A stretch of 64,000 nucleotides of DNA from a bacterium (GTDB lineage Bacteria > Patescibacteriota > Minisyncoccia > UBA6257 > WO2-44-18), in the NCBI GenBank assembly GCA_030646995.1, contig JAUSKF010000006.1, positions 8,624 through 72,623 of the forward strand. Reading direction: 5' to 3'. Both the position numbers and the translations under genes were made by a program. Under the pieces are notes generated by a model. The model had not been told where the DNA came from. It ran no database searches and saw only the letters and a program-made list of their open reading frames with translations. The first letter of the stretch is position 1. Every line of letters begins with the position of its first letter. Below, piece by piece: positions 3,866-44,929 of this stretch.

Positions 3866-6481
3866 ATGCCTTCTTTTAATAGATTCACTATCCGAGCCCA
3901 AGAGGCTCTCCAAAATGCTCAAGAGTTAGCCGCTAAGAGAAGTCACGGCGAATTCCGCGTTTTGCATCTTTTGCATACTCTCTTGCAAGACGAGCAAACT
4001 CTCGTCAGGCCAATGCTGATTAAGGCAGGTTTGAATGTGGAAAACTTTTTGCGTTCAGTGGAGGCGGAAATGAAGAAAATGCCAAAGATTTTCACCGCTT
4101 CCAATGTCGGTCAGCTCTATCTTTCTCCGGAATTAATGCAGGTCTTGGAGCGGGCCGGAAAGATCGCTATTTCTCAAAAAGATGAATATATCTCCTGCGA
4201 GCATTTGCTTTTGGGTATTTTTGATTCTTCTTCTTCGGCGCAAAAAATGCTTGAGAAATTCGGTTTGAAAAGGGATTTGGCTTTCCGTGCGCTTGCGCAG
4301 CTACGTGGCTCTACTCGTATTACCGATGAAACGCCGGAAAGTAAGTTCCAAGTTTTGGAAAAATACGCAGTTAATCTCACTGATCGGGCTCGAGATGGTA
4401 AGTTGGATCCGGTAATTGGCCGACAGGAAGAGTTGCGCCGTTTAATTCAAGTTTTGAGTCGGAGAACCAAGAATAATCCCGTGTTAATAGGAGAGTCGGG
4501 TGTGGGTAAGACCGCAATCGTTGAGGGATTAGCCCAGAGGATTGTTTCCGGTGATGTGCCGGAGACTCTGAAGGATAAGGAGATTATTATGTTGGATTTG
4601 GGTTCATTAATCGCCGGAACTAAGTTCCGTGGTGAGTTTGAAGATCGTTTGAAGGCCTTCGTGAAGGAAATCCAGAACTCTGCCGGCCGGTTAATCCTGT
4701 TTATTGATGAGATACACATGATAGTAGGAGCCGGCGCCGCAGAAGGGGCAATTGATGCTTCTAATCTTCTCAAGCCACCGCTCGCCCGTGGTGAGTTGCA
4801 TGCAATCGGCGCCACTACTATTCGGGAATATCAGCGTCATATTGAAAAAGACCCGGCTTTAGAGCGCCGGTTTCAGCCGATTATGGTTGAAGAGCCGAAC
4901 ACGGAAGATGCGGTTTCTATTTTGCGTGGCTTAAAAGAAAAATATGAGATGCATCATGGGTTGCAGATTAGCGACGAGGCTATTAGAGCGGCTGTGAATC
5001 TTTCTGCTCGATATATCACAGATCGCTTTTTGCCCGACAAAGCGGTGGATTTGATTGACGAAGCCGCTGCGGCGCGACGTCTGGAAACCGAAAGTCTGCC
5101 GATTGAATTGGATAAGATTCGTAGAGAGATTACCCGCCGAGAAATTGAGCGTTCAGCGCTTTCTCAAGAGAGTTCGGTTAAAAATAAGAGTCGGATGAAG
5201 ACTATCGACGGTGAGGTGGGTAAGTTGAAGGAAAAGAACGATGATCTATCGGCCTCTTGGCATGCGGAAAAAATTACTTTTGAAAATTTACATAATCTAA
5301 GGAAAAAAATTGAAGATTTGAAACGACAGGCTGAATTAGCCGAGCGAGAGGGCGATTTGGAGGGAGTTGCGCAAATTGTTTATGGAAGCTTGCCGCAGGC
5401 CGAGAAAGATTATAAGAGCTTCACGAAAAAACACGCTAAATCGTCCGGATTCATCAAAGAGAAGGTGGATGCCGAAGATATTGCTGCGGTGGTGGCTCGG
5501 TGGACGGGCATTCCGGTGAGTCGGATGTTGGAATCTGAGGCAAAAAAATTGATAAGAATTGAAGAGGCTTTACAGGGTCGGGTTATCGGGCAGGGAGCTG
5601 CCGTTAAGGCCGTGGCTAGCTCCTTGCGGCGTGCCCGCGCAGGGCTTTCCGATGAAAATCGCCCTCTCGGCTCATTTATGTTCTTGGGGCCGACCGGAGT
5701 CGGAAAAACTGAACTCGCTAAAGCCCTAGCGGAGTTTATGTTTAACGATGAAAAGTCCCTAATTCGCATAGATATGTCTGAATATATGGAGAAACATTCG
5801 GTTGCGCGTTTAATCGGATCGCCGCCGGGATATGTTGGTTTCGAGGATGGCGGGCAGCTGACTGAATTAGTGCGGCATCGGCCATATAGTCTGATTTTGT
5901 TTGATGAGATAGAAAAAGCGCATCCGGAGGTGTTTAATATTCTGCTACAAATTTTGGATAACGGACGGTTAACGGACAGCAAGGGCCGAGTAATTAACTT
6001 TAAAAATTCCATTATTTTACTTACCTCCAACGTGGGCAGTCATTACTTCAAGGCAATGTCGAACATAGGGTTTTCTTCTTCTGGAGACTCCGCTCACGAG
6101 TCTCAAGAGGAGGGATTACGCTCTAAAGTCAGCGAATCTTTAAAGCGGACTTTTAAACCGGAATTTCTGAATCGTTTAGATGAAACAATTATTTTTAATA
6201 CCTTAACAAAAAAAGAGATTGAGCAGATTGTTGATTTGCAGATTGATCAGGTGAAAGAAAGGCTAAAAGAGCGCAGTATCATCATTAATGTAGACGTGGC
6301 TGCTAAAAAGTATATAGTTGAGAACGGATTTGACCCGGAATACGGAGCTAGGCCGATTAGACGGTTAATACAAAAAACTATTCTCGATAAGCTTGCCGAC
6401 AAGATAATCGGCGGGGAAATTAAAGATGGTGACAAAGTTAAAATCGGTTTTTCTAAGTCCTCAATCAGCGTTAGCGTTTAA
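3866..6481 (+). CDS. clpB: ATP-dependent chaperone ClpB (two AAA+ modules plus coiled-coil middle domain)
   Basis: N-terminal Clp repeats; Walker [19 protein letters not shown] and [15 protein letters not shown]; a long M-domain; 871 aa, typical for ClpB. Confidence 0.9.
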
Positions 6482-7136
6482 GGCGGCTGTTTTCGCCGGT
6501 TTTTTTGCTTTGGCAAAACTAGGCGATTTCAGCCTATTTTCGTTATCTGTATTTTTTGTGGCTGCCTGGGTTTTATACACCCGACCATTTTTTAGGACGT
6601 TTGAGATGGCCGGAACTTTTGTTGTGTTATTGGCTAGCTCAATTGTATTTAGCCACACATTTACTGATTCGATTGATTTCCTGTTCGCAATTGTATATTT
6701 CTCGGCGCTCTTCTATATACTGGTGGGAATTAAGGATTTAGTCCTGATTAACAGAGATGGTTGGAGGGTATTTTTGAACTTCGCTTTGGCCTATCCGGCC
6801 TTTCTTATGTACTTTTACTACAATCAAGGTCATTTTTGGTGGAAATTGCCCTTATTGTTCGCAGTCCTCTTGTTTTTATCCAAGGATTTTCTCAAGAAGA
6901 GGATTGTCTTCTGGTTGGTCGCATTTTTAGGTTCACAAATTGCCTGGGCTGCCGATTTTTTACCAATCGGCTTCGTTAGCTCTGCTAATTTAGCGATTCT
7001 CTTCTATGCTACGGCCGTGTCCTATTGCGACCAGTATTTACGGGAAGGCCTGACTAAAAGACACATTCTTGCGTCTTTTAGTATTTTTCTTGTTCTTTTA
7101 GTCGCTATTTTCGCCTTCTCCTCCTGGGGATTTTAG
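6426..7136 (+). CDS. Multi-pass integral membrane protein of unknown function
   Basis: Five or more hydrophobic helices. The start is ambiguous. The ATG at 6426 has a GGGGAA Shine-Dalgarno sequence but overlaps the clpB 3' end by 56 nt. An alternative ATG at 6606 has an AGGA Shine-Dalgarno sequence. Confidence 0.4.
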   Translation: MVTKLKSVFLSPQSALAFKAAVFAGFFALAKLGDFSLFSLSVFFVAAWVLYTRPFFRTFEMAGTFVVLLASSIVFSHTFTDSIDFLFAIVYFSALFYILVGIKDLVLINRDGWRVFLNFALAYPAFLMYFYYNQGHFWWKLPLLFAVLLFLSKDFLKKRIVFWLVAFLGSQIAWAADFLPIGFVSSANLAILFYATAVSYCDQYLREGLTKRHILASFSIFLVLLVAIFAFSSWGF

Positions 7137-7969: not shown

Positions 7970-8611
7970 ATGTTTGTTAATCAAAAATCTACCGAAATCT
8001 GTTATGCCTTATTGCGGGTGGCGGCGCAGATTCGTCGTCAGCAACTAAAGCAGAACCTTGAGAAGTTGGCTTTCAGGTTTCTGGAAGCCGCCACCTCGGA
8101 GGATTTTGACTTGGCGTTGAAAACATCATCTTCTATTGATGCGATGCTGAAGATTGGTCAATCTCTCTATGAAATCGAACCGGTTAACTCTAAGGTTATT
8201 TCTGGCGAGCTTGAAGCGGTTAACGCGGCAATGCGGCAATCATTGGGCATAGATGGATTGCCGAATCTAGACAGGATTTTTGAAAAGGCGAATAATGCGG
8301 CAAGCTATTCGGCAAAAACTTTTGCCGATATACGGCCATCTGCCGGATTGCCGGATTCTTTGCCTGTTTCTGAAAATAATAACGGCAATAGCAATGGATT
8401 CTCGGCAACAATCCGGCAATCGGCAATTTTGGATAAGATTCGGCAATCCGGCAACAACCAGGCAGCACTTAAAGATATCATTGCCGCATTCCCGGAAATC
8501 AGTGAGCGGACTATGAGATATGACCTCCAAAAGCTATGTCTCCAAGGCTTAATAGAGCGTGTCGGTAGTGGTGGTCCGGGTAGCTACTATTCGGTCAAAA
8601 ATGGGGCGTAA
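7970..8611 (+). CDS. Hypothetical protein with C-terminal winged-HTH (DeoR / Fic-C-terminal-like ISERTMRYDLQKLCLQGLIERVGSG)
   Basis: The C-terminal 45 aa match the S-E-R-T-x-R-x-D-L wHTH pattern. The N-terminal domain is helical. The coding DNA at 8220-8500 carries CGGCAA microrepeats. It is transcribed divergently from galU. Confidence 0.35.
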   Translation: MFVNQKSTEICYALLRVAAQIRRQQLKQNLEKLAFRFLEAATSEDFDLALKTSSSIDAMLKIGQSLYEIEPVNSKVISGELEAVNAAMRQSLGIDGLPNLDRIFEKANNAASYSAKTFADIRPSAGLPDSLPVSENNNGNSNGFSATIRQSAILDKIRQSGNNQAALKDIIAAFPEISERTMRYDLQKLCLQGLIERVGSGGPGSYYSVKNGA

Positions 8612-8788
8612 TAAAACGAAAATAGCCTCGTTATATCTAGGTAATGACTTTGTGTGAGGCTGGGTCATTTACGAAGGCTTTTAATGTTTAAATATTTCAA
8701 TATTTAAATGTTGTAGCCCTTACCAGCCCTCCCACATCGGGAGAGTTTTTTTATTCCTCACAAGTAAAAAACTCCCAGTAATTACTTA

Positions 8789-8826
8789 AGACCTATAGGT
8801 CCTATAAGACTTATAAGTCCTATGTC
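8789..8826. repeat. Four tandem ~9-bp units (AGACCTATAGG / TCCTATAAG / ACTTATAAG / TCCTATGTC) including the palindrome GACCTATAGGTC
   Basis: Seen directly about 135 bp upstream of the 1250-aa surface protein gene. A GCGCGCactaGCGCG hairpin follows at 8874..8889. Confidence 0.5.
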
Positions 8827-8959
8827 AGCTTGAAACAAAGAAAAGATTGATTTTCGGTCCGTGGTCGATTCTTGCGCGCACTAGCGCGTCGGAAGGAACA
8901 GGAAACGATCTTTTAGTCAGTAATAAAAACAATTAAGTTAAAGGTAAAATAAATTAAAC

Positions 8960-11900
8960 ATGGGAAATATAACAAAGAAATTTGCTTCGATTGCCATTTC
9001 GGTGGCGACCGTCGCATCACTTTCGGGCTTCTCAATGTTGGTACCTGTCGCTCACGCGCAGACCAGCTTGCAAGCTCAAATCGATGCTTTGTTAGCTCAG
9101 ATTGCTGCGCTACAATCCCAGTTAGCTAGTTCGAGCCCTGTTAGCACCGCCCTCTGCTCTTTCACCCGAGACCTCACCTTGGGAGTAAGAGGAGATGATG
9201 TAATGTGCTTACAGAAATACTTGAATAGCACTGGACATAAAGTATCAACCAGTGGACCAGGTTCCATTGGAAACGAAACATCCTACTTCGGTGCATTGAC
9301 CGCTTCGGCTGTTGCCAAATGGCAGGCCGCTAACGGCGTTGCTCCGGCTGCTGGATATTTTGGACGCATCTCTCGAGCTAAATATGCATCATTGGCTGTC
9401 GTGGCCCCAGCTCCGGCCCCGGCTCCAGTTCCTGGCACTCCGGCCCCAGTTCCTTCTGGTTCTGGATTGACAGTCACATTAGCTTCCGATCAACCGTCCA
9501 ACGGCTTATTCGGCGAATCATTTGCTAGCCGCCCATTCACGAAACTCACGTTGCGTGCTTCGGCTGATGGCGATGTAACCGTTAAAGCTATGGTTGTTGA
9601 AAGGACTGGTCAGGGTAGTGATGCCGCCTTCTCTGGCGTTATCGCTACTGATGAATCAGGTCTCCGTCTTGGTCCGTCCAAAACTTTTGGTTCTGACCAC
9701 AGACTACGCTTGACCGAGAAAGTTGTTGTTAAAGCGGGTCAAACCAGGACCATCGTCTTGGCTGGTGATTCCGATAGCGATCAAAATGACTACAATGGTC
9801 AATTGGTTAGCTTGAGCTTAGTCGGTGTAGAAACCGAAGGAGCTACCGCCGTTAACGCTTCATTCCCGATGACTGGCGCGACTCACACAGTAAATAGCAC
9901 GTTGGCGATCGGTAGCATGACTATCGCTCGCGGCGCTTTCGATCCAGGCTCCGGCTTGACGAAAGAAATCGGAACCGTGGGATATACCTTCTCCGGTTTG
10001 CGGTTGAATGCCGGCACTAACGAAGATGTTTTGGTAAAAGCAATTCAGTGGAACCAATCCGGTTCGGCTGGTTTGGCTGATTTGACCAACGTCAAAGTTG
10101 TGCTTGACGGTACTACTTATGACGTCACCAGCACCGATGGCAAAGACTATGTTGCCAAATTCGGAGCCGGTTTGAAGATTGAAAAAGGTTTGAGCAAGGA
10201 AGTTTACATTAAAGGCGATGTTGCTGGCGGTTCCGCCCGTACCGTTGACTTTGACCTCTTCCGCTACTCTGACATTCAAGTTGTCGGCTTAACCTATGGC
10301 TACGCTTTGTTGCCATCGGGTACAGAAATCGCAGCTGATAACGATGATGACGGCGAAATACAAGACGCCGAGCCTCGTTTTGACGCTTATCAGGTTCACA
10401 TTGGCGCAGGCAGTATCAGCGCTCAAAACGCGCCGACTGTCGGATCCCAGAACGTTGCCGTCAACCTTTCCAACCAGCCTTTGGGTGGTTTGTTGATAGA
10501 CGTTAAGGGTGAAGATGTCACTGTCGCTGCGATGAACTTTGACTTGAGCATCATTGAGTCAACGTCTCAAACCGATGTTGATACCAATGACATCACCAAT
10601 ATCACTTTGGTTGATGAAAACGGAAAGGTAGTTGCGGGTCCGGTTGACGCTGTGGCTGGTGGCAATAATGCTATCCGCTTCTCCGACACCGTTACCTTCA
10701 AGCCTGGCCGTATGGTTTATACCTTGAAAGGTAAAGTCGGAACCGATGTTGGAACCAACGATACAATCGCTGCTTCCACCACTCCAAACTCTGATTGGAC
10801 CACTGTTCGTGGTGTAACCTCCGCGGTAACCATCACCCCAACCCCATCGAGCGCTGTTACTATGAGCACGATGACGGTGAAGGCTGCTTCTTTGAGCATT
10901 ACTTTGTCGTCCGATACCCAGCAGGGCGTTGCTAGCTCTACCGCGCAAACCGTGGTTTCCGGCACCTCTGGATATACGTTCACACAGTATGTGTTAGATG
11001 CTAGCGGTTCTGGTGAAGATCTTCGCATTAATGCTATGCAGTTGTTGTTAACCTTCAGCTCGGCTAACGCCGCTGATGATTTGACCAATTGCCAATTATT
11101 CGATGGCGCTACCGCGTTAAACACCGGAGGCAACATCGTCAATCCGAGCAACAGCGATTCTACCGGTGCAGCTAAGACCTTCAGCTTTGACTCGAGCTTA
11201 ATCGTTGCAAAAGGCACCGTTAAGACCTTGTCTATGAAGTGCAACTTAGTTTCCGGCGCTGCCTCTGGACATTATTGGAATTGGGGTATTGCTGATGCAG
11301 ATGCTTCCATCAACTCCACCGGTATGACCTCAGGTCAAACCGTTGACGGTTCGGATGCAATCACCGCTGATAACGGCCGCATCGTAATTGCCGCGACTTC
11401 CGGAACATTGTCTTTGGTATTGGATGCTTCGAGCCCGTCTCTAAAATGGGCCCAATCCGGTTCCACTGATAACATCTTGGCAGTCTTCCGCTTGAACGCT
11501 ACCAATGAATCGGTTCGCGTAGACACTCTTGGCTTGCAGTTAGCTACTTCTACCAATTCTTCTGCTGTAAACGGTTCCAGCACTCCGAGCGACTTAACTA
11601 AAGTCACTTTGTGGGTTGGCGCCTTGAAAGTTGGTGAAGTTGTCTTCACTGCCAGCGATTATGCTACCGCCACCCTTTCCGGAGTAACTGTTCCGAAAGA
11701 TGGTCAGGTGCTGATTACCGCTAAAGGCGATATCGGCAACATCGGCACTGGTTTGTCGGCTCGTCCGGGCCACTTGGTCAACGTCAATTATGACGCTTCC
11801 AATAGCTCCGATGAATCAAACCTTGGTGCAATTGGTGTAGGTCTTTCTTCCGGCACTACTATTAGCGCTGGTGGATCTGACACTGGTTCCAATGGCGCTA

Positions 11901-12712
11901 GAATCGCTCGGGCTATCCCGACGGTGTCTAAAGAAGCCTTGGCTTCTAACACGTTCTCCAATTCCTCCAATCAGGCACTGTACCGATTTAAGGTTACAGC
12001 TCCGTCTGGTGGTAATGGTGTGAGCTTGTACAAGATGACCTTTGCGATTGCTACTAGCACCCTTAGCTCTCAAGAGACTGATGGTCAAAAAGTAGCTTCG
12101 ACTTATAGGGTGACCAACTTCGATCTGTATTGCTATGAGAATGCAGCTTTCTCGGTTGCTTCTTGCAATACGTTTGATAACTCTGGTCTCTTGAACCAGG
12201 GAGGTTTGGCCAATGCTTCGCACGACAAGTTGGGTCTTAACAACACCAATGAAGGTGCATATAGCTCCTCTTCCCCGAGCGTTAGCGTTCGCTTCAACCC
12301 GACTGACACTACACAGGGTTCTACTGCTGAAGCTATTAGATTGGCTGCTGGTGAAACCAAATACTTCGTCTTACAGGCGGACGTAACTGGTGGAACCAAC
12401 ACCCCGTCTATCACTGTTAGAATGGATGGCGATGCAACTTTCGCTTCGCTGAACGATTCTACTGACTTCGGCGCGGATGCAACTGGTGAAGATAAAGACT
12501 TCACCAATGGTCACGACAACTGGTCCACGGGTCGTTATGTCTTCGCAACCACGGCTTCTATTGTGGATGCGTGGGATAATGATGACTTCATCTGGTCCGG
12601 TAACTCTACCAACACCTCGCAGGGCATTTCGTCTTACGATTGGTTCAACGGATTCTTAGTTCCGGGCCTGTCTAACTCCGACAACGGCGCCACCGAAGTG
12701 TTAACTCTCTAA
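8960..12712 (+). CDS. Large secreted cell-surface protein (candidate S-layer / wall protein): signal peptide, coiled coil, peptidoglycan-binding domain, Pro/Ala linker, ~1050-aa Thr/Ser/Gly/Ala-rich beta-type region
   Basis: Signal peptide ending AHA/QT. PG_binding_1-like motif LTLGVRGDDVMCLQKYLN...GYFGALTASAVAKWQAANGV. APAPAPAPVPGTPAPVP linker. Almost Cys-free and acidic. Codon usage is clearly shifted to C/T-ending codons relative to its neighbours. A strong terminator lies downstream. Confidence 0.8.
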   Translation: MGNITKKFASIAISVATVASLSGFSMLVPVAHAQTSLQAQIDALLAQIAALQSQLASSSPVSTALCSFTRDLTLGVRGDDVMCLQKYLNSTGHKVSTSGPGSIGNETSYFGALTASAVAKWQAANGVAPAAGYFGRISRAKYASLAVVAPAPAPAPVPGTPAPVPSGSGLTVTLASDQPSNGLFGESFASRPFTKLTLRASADGDVTVKAMVVERTGQGSDAAFSGVIATDESGLRLGPSKTFGSDHRLRLTEKVVVKAGQTRTIVLAGDSDSDQNDYNGQLVSLSLVGVETEGATAVNASFPMTGATHTVNSTLAIGSMTIARGAFDPGSGLTKEIGTVGYTFSGLRLNAGTNEDVLVKAIQWNQSGSAGLADLTNVKVVLDGTTYDVTSTDGKDYVAKFGAGLKIEKGLSKEVYIKGDVAGGSARTVDFDLFRYSDIQVVGLTYGYALLPSGTEIAADNDDDGEIQDAEPRFDAYQVHIGAGSISAQNAPTVGSQNVAVNLSNQPLGGLLIDVKGEDVTVAAMNFDLSIIESTSQTDVDTNDITNITLVDENGKVVAGPVDAVAGGNNAIRFSDTVTFKPGRMVYTLKGKVGTDVGTNDTIAASTTPNSDWTTVRGVTSAVTITPTPSSAVTMSTMTVKAASLSITLSSDTQQGVASSTAQTVVSGTSGYTFTQYVLDASGSGEDLRINAMQLLLTFSSANAADDLTNCQLFDGATALNTGGNIVNPSNSDSTGAAKTFSFDSSLIVAKGTVKTLSMKCNLVSGAASGHYWNWGIADADASINSTGMTSGQTVDGSDAITADNGRIVIAATSGTLSLVLDASSPSLKWAQSGSTDNILAVFRLNATNESVRVDTLGLQLATSTNSSAVNGSSTPSDLTKVTLWVGALKVGEVVFTASDYATATLSGVTVPKDGQVLITAKGDIGNIGTGLSARPGHLVNVNYDASNSSDESNLGAIGVGLSSGTTISAGGSDTGSNGARIARAIPTVSKEALASNTFSNSSNQALYRFKVTAPSGGNGVSLYKMTFAIATSTLSSQETDGQKVASTYRVTNFDLYCYENAAFSVASCNTFDNSGLLNQGGLANASHDKLGLNNTNEGAYSSSSPSVSVRFNPTDTTQGSTAEAIRLAAGETKYFVLQADVTGGTNTPSITVRMDGDATFASLNDSTDFGADATGEDKDFTNGHDNWSTGRYVFATTASIVDAWDNDDFIWSGNSTNTSQGISSYDWFNGFLVPGLSNSDNGATEVLTL

Positions 12713-12740
12713 CGGGACTTGAGACCCGCTTAGTGAATCA

Positions 12741-12768
12741 AAACCCCCCGCAAGGGGGGTTTTGATTT
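12741..12768 (+). terminator. Rho-independent terminator AAACCCCCCgcaaGGGGGGTTTTGATTT
   Basis: 6-bp G/C stem with a GCAA loop and a T-run, 29 nt after the stop of the surface protein gene. Confidence 0.75.
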
Positions 12769-12826: not shown

Positions 12827-13621
12827 ATGAAGAAAATCTTATTAACTTTAGGAGGACTAGTTGTAATCGGTGCGTCTACCGCCGTTTTTTATTCTAATTA
12901 TTACAAACCGAAAGGCGATGTGGTTACTCCGACGCAAGGTCAGAGCGATGACGGCATCGTTCTAGCAACCAGCTCTCCAGAAAAGCCGGCCGAGAAGCCG
13001 ATTGTTATTGATAGTACTCCGAAGTACAAAGGGCAGGATTTAAATTTTTTGGCTTCCCCAAAAGAGCTTTCCGGTTATCCGAAAGAATTCGTGGAGGCGC
13101 AGCAAAAGAAATTACTCGGAATTATTAAGTTGGTGAATGAAAACCCTAAAGATGAGACTAACTGGATAGACGTCGGGTTGGTGAAAAAAGTTTTTAATAA
13201 TTATATCGGCGCTCGTGATGTTTGGGAATATGCCAAACTGCTAAATCCGAATGCCTCAATGTCTTACAGTAATCTTGGCAAGCTTTATTCGGGATATTTA
13301 TCAGATAATAAAAAAGCGGAAGAAAATTTTTTGGCCGCCTTGAAACTAGACCCCGGAATAAGCGATGGCTATCTCGCTTTAGCCGAGTTTTACCGTGATT
13401 TTTATAAGGAAAAATTTGACCAAGTGGATGACGTTTTGCTCGCAGGAATTAAGGTTGTGCCATTGGATCTCAATTTGCATCTCCAGCTGGCCTTTTACTA
13501 TAAAAACATCGGAGATAAAGAAAATGCGATAAAGTATTTTGAGAAGTTTTTGAAGCTTCCTGACCTGACCGGAGCTCAACAAAAAGCCATTGAAGAAGAA
13601 GTGGTTGCTCTTAAGAGTTAA
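12827..13621 (+). CDS. N-terminally membrane-anchored protein with TPR-like helical repeats
   Basis: One N-terminal TM helix (ILLTLGGLVVIGASTAVFY). The rest is helical-repeat-like (…KAEENFLAALKLDP…NAIKYFEKFLKL). Its 3' end overlaps the convergent GT4 gene by 11 nt. Confidence 0.45.
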   Translation: MKKILLTLGGLVVIGASTAVFYSNYYKPKGDVVTPTQGQSDDGIVLATSSPEKPAEKPIVIDSTPKYKGQDLNFLASPKELSGYPKEFVEAQQKKLLGIIKLVNENPKDETNWIDVGLVKKVFNNYIGARDVWEYAKLLNPNASMSYSNLGKLYSGYLSDNKKAEENFLAALKLDPGISDGYLALAEFYRDFYKEKFDQVDDVLLAGIKVVPLDLNLHLQLAFYYKNIGDKENAIKYFEKFLKLPDLTGAQQKAIEEEVVALKS

Positions 13622-14738
13622 GATAGATCTTTTCTGTAGCGGCCACCATCAACTCTAAGTTTAGAGATTCTTTCAGGAAGGTATTCCCCTTTTGCGCTAA
13701 TTGCTCCGCCACCTCTTTATTGTTGATTAGGTGCTCGATGGCTCGGGCCAATTCGCCTGGCATATTGGGTTGCATCACCAGGCCGCGATCTGTGGCTATC
13801 TCGGTCATACCGCCTACTCGCGTGGTGATTACCGGCAGTCCGGCGGCCATAGCCTCAAGGAGGGTGTAGGGCAGACCTTCTTTGATTGACGACAGTAGGA
13901 AGATATCGAAGGCTTTCATATATGGCGCGGCCGGAGCAACGCCATTGACGATGTAGAATTTATTTTCCAGGCCCAGTTTTTTTATTCTGGAGAGCAAGCG
14001 GTCTTTCAGTGGCCCGTCGCCGATTATAAAAAATTGTACATTTTCGTTTTTTACTAAAGCAGCGGCATCAACGAAGTCGCGGTAGCTTTTTTCTATGACT
14101 AGCCGGCCGATTGAGCCGACCCAAATTGAGTTTGTGAGTTGATGAGTTGATAGGTTTAATCCGGCCAGAGTTGTCAGCGCCTTGCGGGAGGTTTTTTTAT
14201 CAAAAAATTTAAGGTTTTCCCAGTCCAAGCCATTATAAATGGTCACCAGTTTATTTAATGGAGCAATCTTATTTTGGATCGCCAAGCTTCTGTCATATTC
14301 GGATACGTTGATTATGACATCCTGATACCGGGCGGCCATTCTATGTATTAAAGTGAAAAGCTTTCTTTTTAAGTACCCCAAGGAGTTATCCGGATTAAAA
14401 ACCCATCCATGAGCGGTAAATACTACTTTGGGGACGCCGCTTAGTTTGGCGGCGATTGCTCCCACCACGCCGGCCTTTGAGCTGTTGAGGTGTACTACAT
14501 CCGGCTTTTCTTTTTTGAAGAAAAAGAACAATTCCGCAATTGCCAGCCAGTCATTGATGAATAAAAGGTGCGGCCAAAAAGAATTGGAGAGGAAGAAAAT
14601 CCCCTTTTTCCCTCCGGTAACTACCCTCACCTCAAATTTATCTTTATTTAAGTTGTCGGCGAGATCTTGGACGTATTTTTGCGCTCCGCCAACGTCTTCT
14701 TTGGTGATTAAATATAATACTTTCGTTCTCATATTCAC
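13611..14738 (-). CDS. GT4-family glycosyltransferase (GT-B, retaining)
   Basis: EGLPYTLLEAMAAGLPVITTRVGG E-x7-E motif and a GT4-like N-terminus (VGGAQKYVQDLA). Confidence 0.8.
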   Translation of the reverse strand: MNMRTKVLYLITKEDVGGAQKYVQDLADNLNKDKFEVRVVTGGKKGIFFLSNSFWPHLLFINDWLAIAELFFFFKKEKPDVVHLNSSKAGVVGAIAAKLSGVPKVVFTAHGWVFNPDNSLGYLKRKLFTLIHRMAARYQDVIINVSEYDRSLAIQNKIAPLNKLVTIYNGLDWENLKFFDKKTSRKALTTLAGLNLSTHQLTNSIWVGSIGRLVIEKSYRDFVDAAALVKNENVQFFIIGDGPLKDRLLSRIKKLGLENKFYIVNGVAPAAPYMKAFDIFLLSSIKEGLPYTLLEAMAAGLPVITTRVGGMTEIATDRGLVMQPNMPGELARAIEHLINNKEVAEQLAQKGNTFLKESLNLELMVAATEKIYLNS

Positions 14739-19837: not shown

Positions 19838-21224
19838 TGCTTCGGACCAGAAACACTCCTTGTTGCACTACTTCTTTAAGGGCGAGGCCCTGAAGAGGTT
19901 TTTTGATACGCTGGCGACCGGCATCGGGTTAATCAATTCCTACTTCATCATCAGCACTCTCTCCGTTTTCCACTTCGGTTTGTATCAGTTAGTACTATCT
20001 TTCATAGCCATACTGGACGGCTTCAGTTTGGATGTGATGGATGGAGTGGTAGTGGTAGATATGCGTAGTTATCTTAATAAAGGTTTGAGGGGAGCCGCTA
20101 AAAAACTTTATTTGGCGTATATAAAGTTGAAACTTGGAATCTCTATCATGATGGCGGTCGGCGCTTTTTTCCTTTCCGGCATAATTGCCAAGTCTTATAG
20201 CGAGGACATCGGACTGCTGATAAAGATCGCCAGCTTGCTGCTGATATTCAGATCCCTTCAATCATTGGAGTCGTTGATTCTGAAAGTGATAATGAACTTT
20301 ACTTATTGGAGTTATCCGGCCGTGCGCGAGGTCGCCAAGTTGGGTCTTATTATATTTTTGTTGGTTACGAGTGGAAGTTTTTCAATAGTTCAACTGCTGA
20401 CCGCCCACGTTATAGCCGATGGCGTGGCGGTGCTGTTTCTGACCTTGGTTTTGTTTTGGAGGAATTTTTATAAGGTATTTCACGGGGTCGTTAGCGATGC
20501 CGAGAACCACTTGTGGGGGGTAATCAAAACATATGGCCATTGGACGGTTTTGCGTTATGTTTTTTCCAAGATCAGCAAAAATGTCACACCCTGGTTCTTG
20601 AAGTTCTTTATTAACACAGAGGCGGTCGCTTTTTATTCGTTAGCGATCAATCTCATAGCCTTTATCGAGAATCTATTTCCTCTGGATGGGCTTTCCCCGA
20701 TCCTGGCTCTTAAGTCGGACAATCGGGGGGAAATTAGCTTTATCTTCAAGAGGGCGGTTAAGTACGCTTTTTGGTTGGGAATGATTCTAATGGTAGTGAG
20801 TTTTATCTTCGTGCCTCCGGTGGTGACGTTTATTTTCCCCAAGTATCAGCCGGCCATGCCCATCTTCAAGGTAATGATTTTGGCTTTGCCTATTTTCGGA
20901 TTCTATAAGATTCTTAAGGCTACTTTGACGGTTTTGAAAGAGCAGAGAGTGCTAACGATGCGTCTACTGAACGAATCATTGATGGTGCCGCTGGGTTTGA
21001 CTATCTTCCTGCCAATCTTTAAATTGGCGGGAGCTGGCGCGGCATACGCTATGGCTTACGTAGAAAGAGTTTGGTTCTTTTATTCCCAGCTGATTAAGAA
21101 ATATCCGGAATTTCGGATTAAGATTCGGCAGTTCTTCAAGATTGATGAATATGACCGCGAAATTTTTCGTCGTACGATCCGGCGTCCTTTGCAGGCGATT
21201 AAAGAATTGCGAAAAAATAAATAA
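19827..21224 (+). CDS. Polysaccharide biosynthesis/export membrane protein (Wzx/MOP flippase-like, about 12 TM helices)
   Basis: Roughly 465-aa multi-pass protein with a Wzx-like N-terminus (LKRFFDTLATGIGLINSYFI). The start is set to the internal ATG at 19827 (MIINAS), which overlaps the upstream GT4 by 11 nt. Confidence 0.5.
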   Translation: MIINASDQKHSLLHYFFKGEALKRFFDTLATGIGLINSYFIISTLSVFHFGLYQLVLSFIAILDGFSLDVMDGVVVVDMRSYLNKGLRGAAKKLYLAYIKLKLGISIMMAVGAFFLSGIIAKSYSEDIGLLIKIASLLLIFRSLQSLESLILKVIMNFTYWSYPAVREVAKLGLIIFLLVTSGSFSIVQLLTAHVIADGVAVLFLTLVLFWRNFYKVFHGVVSDAENHLWGVIKTYGHWTVLRYVFSKISKNVTPWFLKFFINTEAVAFYSLAINLIAFIENLFPLDGLSPILALKSDNRGEISFIFKRAVKYAFWLGMILMVVSFIFVPPVVTFIFPKYQPAMPIFKVMILALPIFGFYKILKATLTVLKEQRVLTMRLLNESLMVPLGLTIFLPIFKLAGAGAAYAMAYVERVWFFYSQLIKKYPEFRIKIRQFFKIDEYDREIFRRTIRRPLQAIKELRKNK

Positions 21225-22570
21225 TGCAAACCAAAACCGTTTTTATATCCTGTTTTTTTAATCTGGTGGCGCGCAATGTTTTGGAAACCAGTTTTTTTCA
21301 AAAATTGCGCAGCCGTACCGATTTGAAGATTGTTCTTCTTGCTCCGCAGGGCAAAGGAGATTTTTTTCGTAAGGAATTTGGTGGATCGAATGTGGCGGTG
21401 GAGGAGGTGCCGACGCGTCCGATGTCCAAACCTGGTCTTTTGTTTCACTTGTTGGCGTGGAATTTATTAAGAACAAAGAGCAAGGAGATACACCGCTTTG
21501 TTCAGTTAGGAAAGGACCGTAATTATGCGCGATATTTTTTCACGTCGGCCATGAATTGGTTTGGTGGTCGGCCGCTTATTCGCCGAGCGTTTCGTTATTT
21601 CGATGCCTTTATGCCTAGCGGTGGCTTTGACTATCTTTTTGATCGTTATCGGCCAGATTTGGTGTTTGCCACAGATATTCAAGATCTACGTGTGCAGGAG
21701 TTAAGCGATACCGCGCTTATCCGGGCCGCTCGGCGACGGGGAGTGAACAGCGTGGGTATGTCGCGCTCGTGGGACAGCATGACCACTAAGGGGTTGCTGC
21801 GCACCCTGCCCGATTTGTTAGTAGTTCAAACAGACAATATCAAAAGCCAGGCAGTCGCCTACCACAGCGTCCCCGCTGATCGTGTGGTCGTAGTCGGCGT
21901 GCCACACTATGATTCCTATATAACCGGTACTCGGACATCCCGAGAAGATTTTTTCAAAAGGATCGGGTTGGATCCGGCTAAAAAACTTATATTTTTTGCC
22001 CCACCCAGCGATATTTGGACCGGCGACAAGTCTTTGAACCCATTTTTATTCAAAACGATCGCTTCCATTGGGGAGCAAGTGGTCGCCCGCTTTCCTATAT
22101 TTGGAGAGTTGGACCTAGGGGATTTCGCGCGACCCGCTAATATGGTTTTTGACCGACCAACCAACTCGGATAATTTAGCGGAGGCTTTATTAGCGAAAAA
22201 AGACGATGCCCACTTTGCTAATCTTCTCTACCACAGCGATGTAGTAGTTACTGGGCCGTCGAGTGTGATCTTAGATGCTTCTCTATTCAATAAGCCAACG
22301 ATCTTGATCGGTTTTGATGGAGAAAAAATAAAGCCCTATTGGCAAAGATTGAGTCGATATTATGATTACGAACACCAGGATGCGGCGATCAGGTTAGGCG
22401 AGCTTAGGGTCGCCAAAAGCCGGGGAGAGCTGGTAGAGTATATAAAAGAAGGTCTTAGTCAGCCTAAGCGCGGAGAAGAGGGTCGTCGACGGTTAGCAAA
22501 TAGTTTCTGCCAGGATTTAGACGGAAGATCCGGGGAGCGTTTGGCGGCAGCGATCACTGATAATCTATGA
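21224..22570 (+). CDS. TagB/TagF-like (CDP-glycerol glycerophosphotransferase family, PF04464-like) polyol-/glycosyl-phosphate transferase, paralog 1
   Basis: C-terminal TagF-like signatures VVTGPSSVILDASLFNKPTILIGFDGE (compare ITDYSSVFFDYALLDKPIIFF) and terminal DGRSGERLAAAI. One of five paralogs in the window. Confidence 0.5.
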   Translation: MQTKTVFISCFFNLVARNVLETSFFQKLRSRTDLKIVLLAPQGKGDFFRKEFGGSNVAVEEVPTRPMSKPGLLFHLLAWNLLRTKSKEIHRFVQLGKDRNYARYFFTSAMNWFGGRPLIRRAFRYFDAFMPSGGFDYLFDRYRPDLVFATDIQDLRVQELSDTALIRAARRRGVNSVGMSRSWDSMTTKGLLRTLPDLLVVQTDNIKSQAVAYHSVPADRVVVVGVPHYDSYITGTRTSREDFFKRIGLDPAKKLIFFAPPSDIWTGDKSLNPFLFKTIASIGEQVVARFPIFGELDLGDFARPANMVFDRPTNSDNLAEALLAKKDDAHFANLLYHSDVVVTGPSSVILDASLFNKPTILIGFDGEKIKPYWQRLSRYYDYEHQDAAIRLGELRVAKSRGELVEYIKEGLSQPKRGEEGRRRLANSFCQDLDGRSGERLAAAITDNL

Positions 22571-26191: not shown

Positions 26192-26255
26192 TTTTGACTA
26201 TCCCACGTATTTTATTGCATACTACCCCTAGTTGTTTAACAAGAGAGGAGTAGAT

Positions 26256-29671: not shown

Positions 29672-30634
29672 ATGTTGAATATTCTATTAGCAGAAAAAGT
29701 TTTCAGCCCTGATGCCAAGAAGATCCTAGCCAAAAAAGGCAGGGTTGTGGATTTTGTTTCTCGCCGGGAATTTATGAAAAATCTATCGAAGGCCGATGTT
29801 TTAGTGAATGCCTTAGAGATAAAGCTGGATAAGAATATCTTGCAAAAGGCGATCCGGTTGAAGCTGATAGGTAGCCGCACCACCCAGCTTCGCTATATTG
29901 ATTTGGACGAATGCAAAAAACGAGGAATTGAAGTAGTAAATATCAAGGCCGACTCACCGGTATTGCAGATTACCCCGTCCACCGCCGAAGAGGCGATGGC
30001 TCTGATTTTTTCCGTCCTCCGTCATATTCCTTGGGCGTTCGATTCAATTAAAAATGGCCAATGGGATCGGAAAAAATATGAAGGCCGCGAACTTTATGAA
30101 AAAACAGTCGGTCTAATCGGCTTTGGACGCTTAGGAAAGATGGTAGCAAAATTCTGCCAGGCTTTTGGCGCGATAGTGATTGCTTGCGACCCTAATATAA
30201 CCGCTAAGGCTATGCAAAAATCTAAAGTAAGAAAGGTTCCTATGAAAGAGTTGCTTAAAAAAGCTGATATTATTTCTCTGCATTCTGTTTATAATGACGC
30301 TACCTTCGGGATGTTAAAGGAGGAACATTTTCGATCCATGCGGCCGACGGCGATTTTTATCAATACTGCCAGAGGAGAGATAACTGATGAAAAGGCTTTG
30401 CTGAAAGCCCTAAGGCAAAATTGGATCGCCGGATCAGGGATTGATACTTTGGCCGGAGAAATGCCCGACGGCAGACATCTGATAGGTAATCCGCTAGTGG
30501 ATTATGCGCGGAAGAATAATAATTTGATTATCCTTCCACACCTGGGGGGATCCACTAAAGAGGCGACCGAGAGAACCCAGGTCTACATAAGCGAGCTTGT
30601 AGCCCGGGAGTTAAAAGGCGCTAAATATGAATAA
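29672..30634 (+). CDS. D-isomer-specific 2-hydroxyacid dehydrogenase (SerA-like 3-phosphoglycerate/glycerate dehydrogenase)
   Basis: NAD-binding GLIGFGRLGKMVA, catalytic R/E/H context (FINTARGEITDE, HLGGST). It sits upstream of glyA. Start at the ATG at 29672 (MLNILLAEKVF). Confidence 0.65.
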   Translation: MLNILLAEKVFSPDAKKILAKKGRVVDFVSRREFMKNLSKADVLVNALEIKLDKNILQKAIRLKLIGSRTTQLRYIDLDECKKRGIEVVNIKADSPVLQITPSTAEEAMALIFSVLRHIPWAFDSIKNGQWDRKKYEGRELYEKTVGLIGFGRLGKMVAKFCQAFGAIVIACDPNITAKAMQKSKVRKVPMKELLKKADIISLHSVYNDATFGMLKEEHFRSMRPTAIFINTARGEITDEKALLKALRQNWIAGSGIDTLAGEMPDGRHLIGNPLVDYARKNNNLIILPHLGGSTKEATERTQVYISELVARELKGAKYE

Positions 30635-39439: not shown

Positions 39440-39443
39440 AAAG

Positions 39444-42171: not shown

Positions 42172-43113
42172 ATGTCTGATTTATCGAAAGATAAATATAT
42201 CATTGTTAACTACCACTACGTGGAAGATCCGCGCCCTAAGTCGGCGGGAATTTCTCCCTGTTCGATTGCTGAGTTTGATCGTCAGATCAGTTATTTGTCA
42301 AAGAATTTTAAAATAGTCAACTTGGGAGAGATTTATCAGGCCGCGGTTTCCGGTAAGGAGGGGAAGTTTTGTGCTATTACTTTCGATGATGGCCTGAAAG
42401 ACAATTATGTTAATGCTTTTCCAATCCTCCAGAAATATCAGGCAACGGCTACTTTCTTTATCATTACCTCTGTATTCGAGCATCGTCTACCCGCAGCTCA
42501 CAAGATCCATATTTTACTTTCTAGATTTACCGCTGATCAGATTATCGATCTTTTCCATACTTTCATAGGTGAGTTTTATCCAGACCTAAAAAACCAATAT
42601 ATCATTCCCAAGGACCGTCGTTTAACAGAGCGTAGGATGCATGAAGGAGTAGCAATGGCTAATTTCAAAGAAACAATGATCGCCTTGCCGGAAGATGTGC
42701 GGAGTCAGTTTTTGCGTTATGGATTTAAGATTAATAAATTGAACGAGGAAAAAATCAGTAGCCATTTATTTTTAAATCGAGAAGAAATCAAGGCTTTGCT
42801 GGATGGGGGCATGCAAATCGGTTCGCACTCCCATGGTCATTATTCTATGTCAGGAGACGATGAATCTTTTTTGCGAAAAGACGTAAAACTTTCCAAAGAA
42901 ATTTTATCAGGGATCATCGGCGCTTATCCCAAATGGTTTTCCTATCCGCATGGGCGTTCTAGCGCGGTGGCCGAACGGGTTCTGCGAGAGGAGGGTTTTG
43001 ATTTAGCGGTGACTATTCAGCGGAAAAAAATAGAGAGCACCGATAGTCCGTTGACGATCCCTCGGTATGATACGATAGATATAAAAGAGTATTTGGATGA
43101 GCAAAAGATTTAG
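42172..43113 (+). CDS. Polysaccharide deacetylase (NodB-homology / CE4), paralog B
   Basis: FCAITFDDGLKDNY, GSHSHGHY, SYPHGR; paralogous to the ORF at 25295..26191. Confidence 0.7.
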   Translation: MSDLSKDKYIIVNYHYVEDPRPKSAGISPCSIAEFDRQISYLSKNFKIVNLGEIYQAAVSGKEGKFCAITFDDGLKDNYVNAFPILQKYQATATFFIITSVFEHRLPAAHKIHILLSRFTADQIIDLFHTFIGEFYPDLKNQYIIPKDRRLTERRMHEGVAMANFKETMIALPEDVRSQFLRYGFKINKLNEEKISSHLFLNREEIKALLDGGMQIGSHSHGHYSMSGDDESFLRKDVKLSKEILSGIIGAYPKWFSYPHGRSSAVAERVLREEGFDLAVTIQRKKIESTDSPLTIPRYDTIDIKEYLDEQKI

Positions 43114-44929
43114 TTTTTTAATTCTGGGTTTGGCAGTGTTAGTTGGGGTGCTTTATCTAGCACCTCAACTCCTAATCAAGCGCGCTGTGGAAAATTCCGG
43201 TCGTACTTTCGTATTGGCTCAATTCAACCAGCTGCATGATGGGGGAGAAGTCTATTTCCAGTTTGCTCGCGAGGCCGCTGAAGGCCATATTCCGCCTGCC
43301 GATCTTTATTTTGACCAGCAGCTCCCCAATATTTATCCGCCTCTTCCACCGGTGATTTTGTCGGTATTGATCCGAATATTCGGAGACGTGACCGGGGCTT
43401 ATTTGGCCGCGTTGTTTATTTTTCCGGCGATTACCTTTCTGTTCTTCTTTTGGTTGGGCTGGATTGTTTTTGATCGCAATAAGCTTTGGTCGGTTTTTAT
43501 GGCTTTGACTGGAATTCTAACTCCTATATTTTTAGTAACCTCGCAAATATTTTTAGGCCCTTCATATTTTGCAAATATCGTATTGAAGAATTTTTATCCC
43601 GGCATCCAGACCCTGCTACCGCTTTTATTCTTCTCCCGGGTTGATCACCCCCTGATTACCAGCTTAATTTACCTTCCGGCCATCGCTTCGTTGTTGATCT
43701 TTTGGAAAAGACCGAGCGCCAAGACGGCGGTTTTAACCGGGTTTGTTTCCGGGCTGCTTTTCTACACCTACTTTCACTTCTGGGCCTATTGGGTGGTGGT
43801 GGGCGGGTTGTTGTTGGTAGCGTCACTACTCTTGTGGCGCCATGAAAAAGCTTTGATAAAAAATTTCCTTGGACTGATCGGCGTTTTTATTGTGATAAGT
43901 ATCCCATATGTAGTTAATCAGTTTCGGTTAAGTCGGTTGCCGGGGTATGACGAGTTTATTAAGCGGGTGGGGGTGGATTTTGGACACGGTGTCGGTTGGC
44001 AGTGGTGGCCATATTATTTGATTTACGCCGGAATGGCGATTTTGATTTACGCGGTTCTTTGGAAGAAAGAGAATGAAAAAAAACGAGCGGTTTTTTACTG
44101 GGTGGCGTTGTTGTCCGGAGTGGTGGCGTTGAATGTTCAGGTGATTACAGGATTCGTACCGCATCCAGATCATTGGTCTAGAGCCGTAGATCCAATCTTG
44201 GCATTGATGATATTTGAGATCATTTATCATCTAGCGAAGAGAGCTTCGGCTCGTTATCCAAATTTCAAAAAGGCGTTGCCGATAGCACTCGCTTTGCTGA
44301 TGGTTCTACTTGTGGCGAAAAAGGCGGTGAACGTGGCCGGCTTTGTGAGGCCTGACCCGGAGTCGCTGGTTCAGTACGCGATGCCGGAGGATTTGTTGGA
44401 ATCTTGGCGATGGATGGATGAAAACCTGAAAGAACCAAAGATTATTTCGCCTTCTATCATCACGACTATTTATTCCACGGCATTCAGTTCGGCGCGGCCG
44501 TTTTTGCCATCAGGTGGCGTTATCCCAATAACCAACGAAAAACTGGAAGACCTTTTTTTGATTGCCAATAAAGTTTTTGGAGTGAGTGTGGATGTAGTGG
44601 AGAAGCGATTAAGAGGGGGCGTGGGATTAGATTGTAAATATCTTTGCGATTGGAACCCTGCGCTCGTGAACATCGAGGGAGCTTCAGGGTTTCTGTACTC
44701 CTCTTATTTTAAGCACCTGACGGGCTCTAAGGCGGTACCGGAAGAAAAGATTGCCGAACTTTCTCGTAAGTATCGGAAAATTCGAGCTGATTGGGATAAC
44801 TTGGGGGCGAATTATGTCTATTATGGGCCGCTCGAGAGGCAATTTTCCACAATTGATCCAAAGAAAGATTCTCGGTTGGAATTGGTTTATAAAAATACCT
44901 CGGTAGAGATTTATAAAATTAAGCGCTAG
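43097..44929 (+). CDS. Large polytopic membrane protein, GT-C-like (ArnT/PMT-like lipid-linked-sugar transferase candidate)
   Basis: About 14 TM helices. Homologous to the C-terminal 600 aa of the GT2 fusion at 61116..63629 (HEKALIKNFLGL versus HDKALIKNFLIL; YVYYGPLERQF versus YVYYGPWEKQF). Confidence 0.5.
   Translation: MSKRFSFLILGLAVLVGVLYLAPQLLIKRAVENSGRTFVLAQFNQLHDGGEVYFQFAREAAEGHIPPADLYFDQQLPNIYPPLPPVILSVLIRIFGDVTGAYLAALFIFPAITFLFFFWLGWIVFDRNKLWSVFMALTGILTPIFLVTSQIFLGPSYFANIVLKNFYPGIQTLLPLLFFSRVDHPLITSLIYLPAIASLLIFWKRPSAKTAVLTGFVSGLLFYTYFHFWAYWVVVGGLLLVASLLLWRHEKALIKNFLGLIGVFIVISIPYVVNQFRLSRLPGYDEFIKRVGVDFGHGVGWQWWPYYLIYAGMAILIYAVLWKKENEKKRAVFYWVALLSGVVALNVQVITGFVPHPDHWSRAVDPILALMIFEIIYHLAKRASARYPNFKKALPIALALLMVLLVAKKAVNVAGFVRPDPESLVQYAMPEDLLESWRWMDENLKEPKIISPSIITTIYSTAFSSARPFLPSGGVIPITNEKLEDLFLIANKVFGVSVDVVEKRLRGGVGLDCKYLCDWNPALVNIEGASGFLYSSYFKHLTGSKAVPEEKIAELSRKYRKIRADWDNLGANYVYYGPLERQFSTIDPKKDSRLELVYKNTSVEIYKIKR

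Follow-up and report, generated by a model that had tools for sequence, protein, structure and literature searches.

A large peptidoglycan-binding surface protein of Parcubacteria as a candidate S-layer-type coat protein

The window, by which we mean the whole stretch of 64,000 nucleotides analysed, carries a gene of 1250 codons preceded by a DeoR-type HTH gene and two conserved RNA elements, and followed by a terminator-like hairpin, a gene for a TPR protein, and a long series of glycan genes. The features discussed are listed in Table 1.

Table 1. Positions, within the window, of the gene for the 1250-aa protein, its parts and its neighbours
Feature	Position	Strand	Remarks
213-aa protein, C-terminal DeoR-type HTH	7970..8611	+	upstream of the 1250-aa gene
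Conserved hairpin with invariant GTGTGAGGCT loop	8642..8669	+	after the stop codon of the upstream gene and before that gene's terminator
Two-tier stem-loop, presumed 5′ leader	8852..8904	+	~55-105 nt upstream of the ATG; contains GGTCGAT; conserved in alignment
Whole gene, 1250 aa	8960..12712	+	same sequence as GenBank MDO8467162.1, whose annotation reads "peptidoglycan-binding domain-containing protein"
Sec signal peptide, aa 1-33	8960..9058	+	predicted cleavage AHA-Q
Short coiled coil, aa 37-55	9068..9124	+	~three heptads
PG_binding_1 domain, aa 72-147	9173..9400	+	Cys66/Cys83 pair close by
Ala/Pro-rich flexible linker, aa 147-169	9398..9466	+	from sequence; pLDDT <50 in the model
Non-repetitive beta-sandwich (Ig-like or cohesin-like) domains, ~1080 aa	9467..12709	+
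Intrinsic-terminator-like hairpin AAAACCCCCCGCAAGGGGGGTTTTGATTT	12740..12768	+	28 nt past the stop codon; -16.1 kcal/mol
264-aa partner protein, N-terminal membrane anchor and TPR domain	12827..13621	+	Pfam; single N-terminal transmembrane segment
GT4 gene	13611-14738	minus
Double-GT4 gene, 751 aa	14777-17032	plus
610-aa GT-C-fold membrane glycosyltransferase, candidate extracytoplasmic transferase	43097..44929	+	in the glycan cluster; ~nine transmembrane segments

The layout proposed in a first-pass annotation of this DNA, namely a signal peptide, a coiled coil, a peptidoglycan-binding domain and an Ala/Pro linker within a single 1250-aa frame, proved to be real. The signal peptide is the sole hydrophobic segment of the protein, and an AxA-Q cleavage motif is kept in its close homologs. 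The a and d positions of the coiled coil, read directly from the sequence, are L37, I41, L44, I48, L51 and L55, and the consensus of this element across the family is LQAQIxALLAQIxALQAQL. The PG_binding_1 domain (PF01471) matches above the Pfam gathering score and is also recovered by its three-helix fold. As an anchor for S-layer proteins, this domain is of an unusual, non-classical type.

The long region beyond the linker, for which structure prediction had been proposed as a check for beta-sandwich or Ig-like repeats, does consist of beta-sandwich domains, but these are non-repetitive. Conservation is highest at aa 110-760, residues 1010-1210 are variable and rich in indels, and the last 40 aa are again conserved. 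The closest solved folds found by Foldseek include the Ig-like domains of PrgB, integrin legs and cohesins; no solved S-layer protein is among the matches. The composition is as first described, with S+T+G+A amounting to 44%, only 6 Cys and a pI of 4.5. Acidic proteins that are rich in Ser, Thr, Gly and Ala and poor in Cys show the classic traits of S-layer proteins. Both a predicted signal peptide and a wall-anchoring module recognized by Pfam and by fold are found in a protein of S-layer-like composition, and neither Pfam nor fold comparison finds a catalytic domain or enzyme fold in it. This last result bears on whether the protein might be an enzyme, such as an extracellular hydrolase of the cell wall: PG_binding_1 proteins often are enzymes, and a GenBank name like "SpoIID/LytB protein" suggests the same here, yet with no enzyme fold found we regard this reading as effectively refuted and give it hardly any weight.

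Counted at 50% identity, the family has 1267 clusters; it occurs in at least 273 species genomes and is limited, by the names of the records, to Parcubacteria/Paceibacteria. Its members are colinear and their length is tightly held at 1150-1300 aa (1172-1199 aa in Kaiserbacteria), and among the 80 best genome loci there is one match per genome. Some members carry misleading database names, for example "DNA topoisomerase IV subunit A" or "SpoIID/LytB", which the family analysis corrects.

The atypical codon usage noted earlier is real and a property of the whole family. Taking the homologous loci together, which span GC contents of 34-59%, the family gene contains more C-ending Phe, Tyr, Asn and His codons in 71 of 72 (p = 2e-13), and the GGG codon is nearly absent from it across the same loci. 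The signature is also present within the window and in four individual loci. Since the bias recurs at this frequency over such a range of GC content, horizontal transfer was rejected as its source. The window holds no ribosomal-protein or tRNA genes, and rpoB and rpoC in two homologous loci served as the yardstick of expression; in both genomes the signature of the family gene is stronger than that of rpoBC. The bias thus fits translational selection, and the very high expression proposed at the outset, as predicted from the codons, is supported indirectly but strongly.

The hairpin behind the gene had been called the strongest terminator in the window; an energy scan places it only about seventh. 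Ahead of the gene, the two-tier stem-loop has compensatory changes in 8 of 18 pairs (RNAalifold), and the share of paired cells is 85.8%, whereas slid controls reach 50-61%. Twenty-five loci have a GGTCGA motif at about -100. The GTGTGAGGCT 8-mer was found in 22 loci, a single copy in each, and in every case its distance upstream of the family gene is 220-440 nt. An Rfam search of these conserved upstream elements gave nothing at threshold, the GTGTGAGGCT hairpin matching no family. In 67 of 71 loci a gene for the TPR protein lies downstream in the same orientation. The DeoR-type HTH gene stands beside the family gene in 21 of 80 loci, being kept in the closer clade, and its product may be a regulator.

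We consider it likely, though by no means certain, that the 1250-aa protein is the major cell-surface coat protein, of S-layer type, of a monoderm Parcubacterium (Paceibacteria/Minisyncoccia). The analysis shows the open reading frame, its domains and folds, the codon bias, the size and colinearity of the family, and synteny; that the protein forms a lattice, which way its domains face, and what the TPR protein and the leader do is inferred. The precursor would be exported by the Sec pathway and cleaved by signal peptidase past Ala33. The PG_binding_1 domain would then bind the cell's own peptidoglycan, possibly as an oligomer held together by the short coiled coil that precedes it, and the flexible Ala/Pro linker would let a beta-sandwich array of ~110 kDa cross the wall and extend past it. 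The conserved inner domains (aa 170-760) may provide the lateral contacts of the lattice, and the variable, indel-rich C-terminal domain would face outward. Selected codons, the structured 5′ leader, which probably stabilizes the mRNA, and a dedicated terminator would together give a very high output. The membrane-anchored TPR protein encoded downstream, a near-universal partner, probably aids export, folding or placement.

Well-known Gram-positive S-layer glycoproteins with adjacent slg clusters are SgsE of Geobacillus stearothermophilus, whose cluster encodes WsaB, and SpaA of Paenibacillus alvei. Like these, the 1250-aa protein is large, acidic, Ser/Thr-rich, Cys-poor and secreted, with an N-terminal wall anchor, signs of very high expression behind a long leader, and glycan genes clustered close by. 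There is no sequence similarity or specific fold similarity to them, however, and their anchor is an SLH domain binding a pyruvylated secondary cell-wall polymer, in place of PG_binding_1.

Proteins resembling this family have been proposed for the same role. Predicted p6 S-layer proteins of 1131-1274 aa have been tabulated for Kaiserbacteria (A0A0G1WWP5, 1173 aa), Nealsonbacteria (A0A1G2EN61, 1131 aa), Doudnabacteria (A0A1F5NRV7, 1264 aa), Kazan (A0A1F4NSF7, 1274 aa) and Parcubacteria (GMX59286.1, 1185 aa), the last being cited there to a study describing PG-binding-domain proteins (bioRxiv 10.1101/2024.05.28.596244). They are secreted, multi-domain, proposed lattice formers of the same lineages and length class as our family, a likeness drawn by taxon and length, and they were predicted by computation, using AlphaFold multimer under planar symmetry. 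In Kuroda et al. (2024, mBio, PMC10936435), proteins of Ca. Yanofskyibacterium, Ca. Microsyncoccus and Minisyncoccus are described as combining a signal peptide at the N-terminus with a peptidoglycan-binding domain and Ig-like beta domains, as here, with similar predicted structures in all three organisms; we compare them by description. By the metatranscriptomic figures given there, PG-binding secreted proteins rank in the top five signal-peptide genes for expression in these three Paceibacteria, which have archaeal, murein-less hosts, and one is logged at 16.7 compared to ~12 for ribosomal proteins (PMC10936435). Cryo-TEM has revealed S-layers without an outer membrane on CPR cells, though these layers are not tied to this protein. 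The S-layer candidacy raised by the first-pass annotation agrees with every property that could be tested at the level of sequence and with this independent literature (PMC10936435, the table of predicted S-layer proteins and CPR cryo-TEM), and the protein is probably an S-layer or major wall-coat protein of the kind already proposed.

Kuroda et al. themselves read their proteins, one of which is only 692 aa long, as host-attachment "extracellular enzymes" (PMC10936435). Applied to our family, this interpretation would make the protein an adhesin, with a stalk of beta domains, a variable C-terminal host-binding tip and a PG-binding domain that either anchors it in the symbiont wall or binds host murein. 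Parcubacteria are episymbionts, the C-terminal 200 aa are variable, the closest folds are protein-protein interaction modules, and multi-Ig surface proteins may serve as adhesins too; the two roles are not mutually exclusive. Gram-positive fibrillar adhesins of the PrgB and FnBPA type, which provide the best Foldseek matches, are likewise chains of Ig-like beta-sandwiches, but they have tandem near-identical repeats, a recognized adhesive domain at the tip and an LPXTG anchor at the C-terminus. In the 1250-aa protein self-BLAST finds no internal repeats, so that a repetitive adhesin was rejected; Pfam and fold comparison give no match to a known adhesive domain; and the C-terminus has neither a hydrophobic segment nor LPXTG as a sortase anchor. 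Length and colinearity are tightly conserved, and a codon bias exceeding that of rpoBC would be unusual for an adhesin. Because the published hosts are archaea without murein, the PG-binding domain would in those cases have to bind the symbiont's own wall. We therefore think host attachment an unlikely main function.

The evidence of expression and anchoring would serve equally for an abundant wall-associated structural protein that is not crystalline, for instance one that spaces or scaffolds the wall glycopolymer which the cluster next to it would produce, and in this clade the gene does adjoin genes of teichoic-acid type. Ordered layers are nevertheless seen on CPR cells, and for proteins of this size in the same lineages, modelling produced planar p6 assemblies (bioRxiv 10.1101/2024.05.28.596244); to our minds this makes a non-crystalline role improbable.

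Ordered surface layers have been seen on CPR/Patescibacteria in the absence of an outer membrane, and the envelope proteins of these bacteria are without experimental characterization. The family is the best candidate for the surface-layer coat of the ultra-small Parcubacteria, and it is well defined: its anchor is conserved, its structural model is confident, a TPR partner accompanies it almost everywhere, and its expression signature can be measured. It could be used for fitting in cryo-ET, for raising antibodies for cell sorting and imaging, and in studies of phage receptors and of host contact in episymbionts.

The position of the gene just upstream of glycan genes, from which it had been taken as the obvious acceptor of O-glycans, is shared by only part of the family. 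Of the glycosyltransferase genes, GT4 and double-GT4 show synteny with the family gene most often, lying within 10 kb of it in 32-34 of 80 loci; this adjacency is mostly found at loci of at least 48% identity and is absent in many distant members. At one distant family locus, a PMT_2 gene lies 179 nt downstream of the family gene. The cluster looks like one for a wall polymer of teichoic-acid type, since it encodes proteins typical of such polymers: TagF-like glycerophosphotransferases, five or six in number, and a flippase. Unlike the SgsE and SpaA clusters, which encode a Wzy_C-type O-oligosaccharyltransferase, it yielded no Wzy_C/PglL/WsaB-type enzyme among the 49 ORFs scanned. A role of the 1250-aa protein as an O-glycan acceptor is thus not established, the one favourable point being the enzyme with a GT-C fold. 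The model of this 610-aa protein is of high quality (AF2 pLDDT 93.8, pTM 0.92), and its nearest solved folds by Foldseek include STT3, PglB and AglB, with AftA and ArnT matching equally well; neither Pfam nor the PDB gave a sequence match. Because the WWDYG motif is absent, it was ruled out as a canonical N-oligosaccharyltransferase.

A wider proposal, which we put forward as speculative, is that most Parcubacteria/Paceibacteria are defined by a vertically inherited, single-copy S-layer system, made up of a lattice protein anchored to murein by PG_binding_1, a TPR assembly factor that is obligatory and acts outside the cytoplasm, and a conserved mRNA leader with secondary structure; within one clade the GT-C protein would be a previously unrecognized oligosaccharyltransferase decorating the lattice protein with the product of the 50-kb glycan cluster. 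If true, the direct attachment of PG_binding_1 to murein would represent a novel way of anchoring an S-layer.

The surface-protein gene encodes 1250 amino acids, identical to GenBank MDO8467162.1. The domain order described in the first-pass annotation (signal peptide, coiled coil, peptidoglycan (PG)-binding domain, (AP)n linker and a Thr/Ser/Gly/Ala/Asn-rich remainder) was recovered by sequence and Pfam analysis, and its "almost no Cys" is borne out by a count of six in the whole chain. The pI is 4.5, the mature mass is 125 kDa, and the signal-peptide stretch is the sole hydrophobic segment. An NCBIfam search of the protein gave no match, and self-BLAST revealed no internal repeats.

Positions of the features discussed (window coordinates, unless marked aa or assigned to another locus)
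Feature	Position	Details
FolD paralogue	150-935	
Five-TM protein gene	6426-7136	236 aa; overlaps end of clpB
DeoR-like gene	7970-8611 (+)	
Conserved hairpin	8642-8669	invariant GTGTGAGGCT loop; between DeoR-like stop codon and its terminator; stems differ among loci
Terminator-like hairpin	8729-8752	in spacer upstream of surface-protein gene
36-nt insertion	8802-8837	short direct repeats (CCTATAGGTCCTATAAGACTTATAAGTCCTAT)
Two-tier stem-loop	8852-8904	GGTCGAT motif; presumed 5′ leader
Surface-protein ORF	8960-12712 (+)	
Sec-type signal peptide	N-terminus to aa 33	K6K7, one hydrophobic stretch, AHA-Q site
Coiled coil	aa 37-55	three heptads; a/d residues L37, I41, L44, I48, L51, L55
PG_binding_1 domain (Pfam)	aa 77-128	27.9 bits vs cutoff 23
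Ala/Pro linker	aa 147-169	
Remainder after linker		about 1080 residues, rich in Ser, Thr, Gly, Ala, Asn
TPR partner gene	12827-13621 (+)	264 aa
Glycan cluster	13.6 to 63.6 kb	41 ORFs
TagF-like paralogues	21224-22570, 37045-38364, 39399-40799, 40809-42161, 53823-55172	CDP-glycerol glycerophosphotransferases
B12-binding radical-SAM enzyme	26232-28343	703 aa
SHMT-FolD pair	30627-31865 and 31867-32646	mid glycan cluster
SPASM radical-SAM enzyme	34734-36023	
GT-C protein	43097-44929	610 aa, unannotated
Three-domain TPP enzyme, then class I/II aminotransferase	49573-52517	
AMP-binding enzyme	56279-57757	
PMT_2/PMT-family GT-C gene	L034 4118-5758	distant locus of the family
Gene and TPR partner 5′ of rpoB-rpoC	L037 5246-17713; L063 9785-22132	homologous loci

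The AlphaFold2 model of residues 60-1250, with 57 family members as input, is confident (mean pLDDT 84.9) and shows the PG-binding domain as three helices, followed by a disordered linker and a string of beta-sandwich domains; structure prediction for such domains had been proposed as a check. Foldseek matched it to generic multi-Ig proteins only (PrgB, mastigoneme, alpha-2-macroglobulin/complement domains and integrin legs); neither a catalytic fold nor a solved S-layer protein was among the matches of the two fold searches. A non-crystalline wall protein, which would share the PG-binding domain, is one of the two main rival readings, and we consider it improbable.

Atypical codon usage relative to flanking genes, also claimed previously, was confirmed against 48 other ORFs of the window and then across the family. 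The gene strongly prefers GCT, GGT, GTT, TTC, AAC, ATC, CAC and GAA, and uses GGG and CCC not once. In 72 homologous loci (GC 34% to 59%), the C-ending fraction at Phe/Tyr/Asn/His is 0.605 vs 0.341 in neighbouring genes (p 2e-13) and GGG accounts for 0.028 vs 0.160 of Gly codons (p 2.4e-13), the family gene being more biased in 71 of the 72 loci by either measure. The bias belongs to the whole family and, in two genomes with rpoB and rpoC nearby, exceeds theirs (0.62 vs 0.44; 0.70 vs 0.41). A strand artefact does not account for the excess of C, as the window's + strand has more G than C. Translational selection in bacteria generally shows itself as a preference for C-ending Phe, Tyr, Asn, His and Ile codons, a signature reportedly described by Sharp et al. 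in 2005. Horizontal transfer was rejected as the origin, since recurrence in 71/72 loci and the excess over rpoB/rpoC argue against it and for very high expression.

S-layers without an outer membrane have been seen by cryo-TEM on groundwater CPR cells and Ca. Nealsonbacteria. In three Paceibacteria parasitising methanogens, PG-binding secreted proteins rank in the top five signal-peptide genes by expression; the three have similar predicted structures, and one was logged at 16.7 vs about 12 for ribosomal proteins (Kuroda et al. 2024, PMC10936435). Since murein is absent from these hosts, the PG-binding domain probably binds the symbiont's own wall. A role as host adhesin, the other main rival, is unlikely in our judgement, and is compatible with a coat role rather than exclusive of it. 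A table in a 2024 preprint (bioRxiv 10.1101/2024.05.28.596244) gives Patescibacteria proteins 1131-1274 aa long as predicted p6 S-layer proteins, one of them with a citation of Kuroda et al.; they resemble the present family in taxon and length. The best explanation is that the surface protein is probably a PG-anchored S-layer-type coat protein, and it is best filed with a kind already proposed, so far by prediction rather than experiment.

Full-length searches returned hundreds of colinear proteins (1150-1300 aa, 40-73% identity), and a search seeded with a Kaiserbacteria member added >1150 more. With the beta region alone as query, 1267 clusters at 50% identity were found (463 at E ≤ 1e-30), nearly all matches beginning 150-250 residues into the subject, so that the anchor-plus-array layout is common to these relatives. 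A single peptide pattern turned up relatives in at least 273 species genomes, recorded under names such as Harrison-, Sung-, Giovannoni-, Kaiser-, Yanofsky-, Taylor-, Yonath- and Niyogibacteria, Paceibacterota and Minisyncoccia. The best 80 loci represent 80 separate assemblies, one each. Conservation peaks at aa 110-760, falls at aa 1010-1210 where indel hot spots occur, and returns in the last 40 residues. Some members (protein records P0011, P0037, P0116, P0149; loci L006-L082) are misnamed "DNA topoisomerase IV subunit A," "SpoIID/LytB protein" or "cell wall surface anchor family protein," and many TPA MAGs with the gene bear the label "uncultured Candidatus Saccharibacteria bacterium," the closest relatives being Parcubacteria.

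The 348-nt spacer upstream of the gene holds three conserved features, none with an Rfam match. Each of 22 loci has a single copy of the 8-mer GTGAGGCT of the first hairpin, invariably 220-440 nt 5′ of the surface-protein gene; this hairpin could be a protein-binding site or small RNA element. The two-tier stem-loop shows compensatory changes in 8 of 18 pairs, with 85.8% of cells paired vs 50-61% when partners are slid. In 25 homologous loci its motif, GGTCGA(T/A), lies about 100 nt before the start codon (roughly -75 to -125), and it recurs even in distant members (Kaiserbacteria, Giovannonibacteria), often inside a hairpin loop. The stem-loop may act as a stabiliser, which would fit a very abundant mRNA. 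Among eleven close loci aligned, only the window and L012 have the 36-nt insertion, both at the same position. The gene is followed by a good terminator (-16.1 kcal/mol); the first-pass observation was largely correct, although this terminator was not confirmed as the strongest in the window, about six others being stronger.

The most constant neighbour is the TPR partner, a TPR-domain protein with a single transmembrane segment at its N-terminus. Of 71 loci with sufficient flank, 67 have a homologue of it downstream in the same orientation (≤1.5 kb away in 57 of these). In the closer clade, ClpB, the five-TM protein and a DeoR-HTH protein are encoded upstream; in about 24 loci the five-TM protein, for which no Pfam family was found, keeps its place between ClpB and the surface-protein gene. 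Downstream, GT4 and double-GT4 genes occur in 32-34 of the best 80 loci, and in Giovannonibacteria the gene is instead directly upstream of rpoB-rpoC; the glycan cluster is thus a neighbour specific to a clade and does not accompany the gene throughout the family. L037 and L063 (Giovannonibacteria; one GW2011 Parcubacterium) have the TPR partner there as well, and in L063 a frameshift splits the surface-protein gene into 993 aa and 269 aa.

Of the ">40 glycan biosynthesis genes" said to lie downstream, a large cluster is indeed present, with glycan-related domains in about 33 ORFs. It comprises five GT4 and two GT2 genes, five or six TagF-like glycerophosphotransferases, one flippase, seven epimerases or dehydratases, two DegT aminotransferases, deacetylases, methyl- and acetyltransferases, nucleotidyltransferases and two radical-SAM enzymes. 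By gene content it resembles a teichoic-acid-type wall-polymer locus, and the number of TagF-like paralogues suggests that this organism, whose genome is very small, makes a complex teichoic-acid-like polymer. No Wzy_C/PglL-type O-oligosaccharyltransferase was found in the cluster.

The unannotated 610-aa protein has about nine transmembrane segments, and its model (pLDDT 93.8, pTM 0.92) matches the oligosaccharyltransferases STT3, PglB and AglB as well as AftA, ArnT and AftD, and its fold is therefore GT-C. D48, R58 and E59 are conserved in its first loop, the WWDYG motif is absent, and no Pfam family covers it. Its homologues share contigs with those of the surface protein; about 50 were found, every one unnamed or just "hypothetical protein," the organism-named ones being Patescibacteria. 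This candidate enzyme could serve in protein glycosylation or polymer extension, and the surface protein as putative glycosylation target is a lead. At L034, a PMT_2/PMT-family gene (protein O-mannosyltransferase or ArnT type) begins 179 nt downstream of the family member.

GC3 is unusually high (0.62-0.64) in both radical-SAM genes and also in the neighbouring genes at 28422 and 36034; these may form a sub-cluster of other origin or expression level. The SHMT-FolD pair, which includes the second of two FolD paralogues in the window, may be a source of one-carbon units for formylating or methylating sugars. Taken together, the TPP enzyme, aminotransferase and AMP-binding enzyme may indicate an unusual substituent, either a sugar or an acid.
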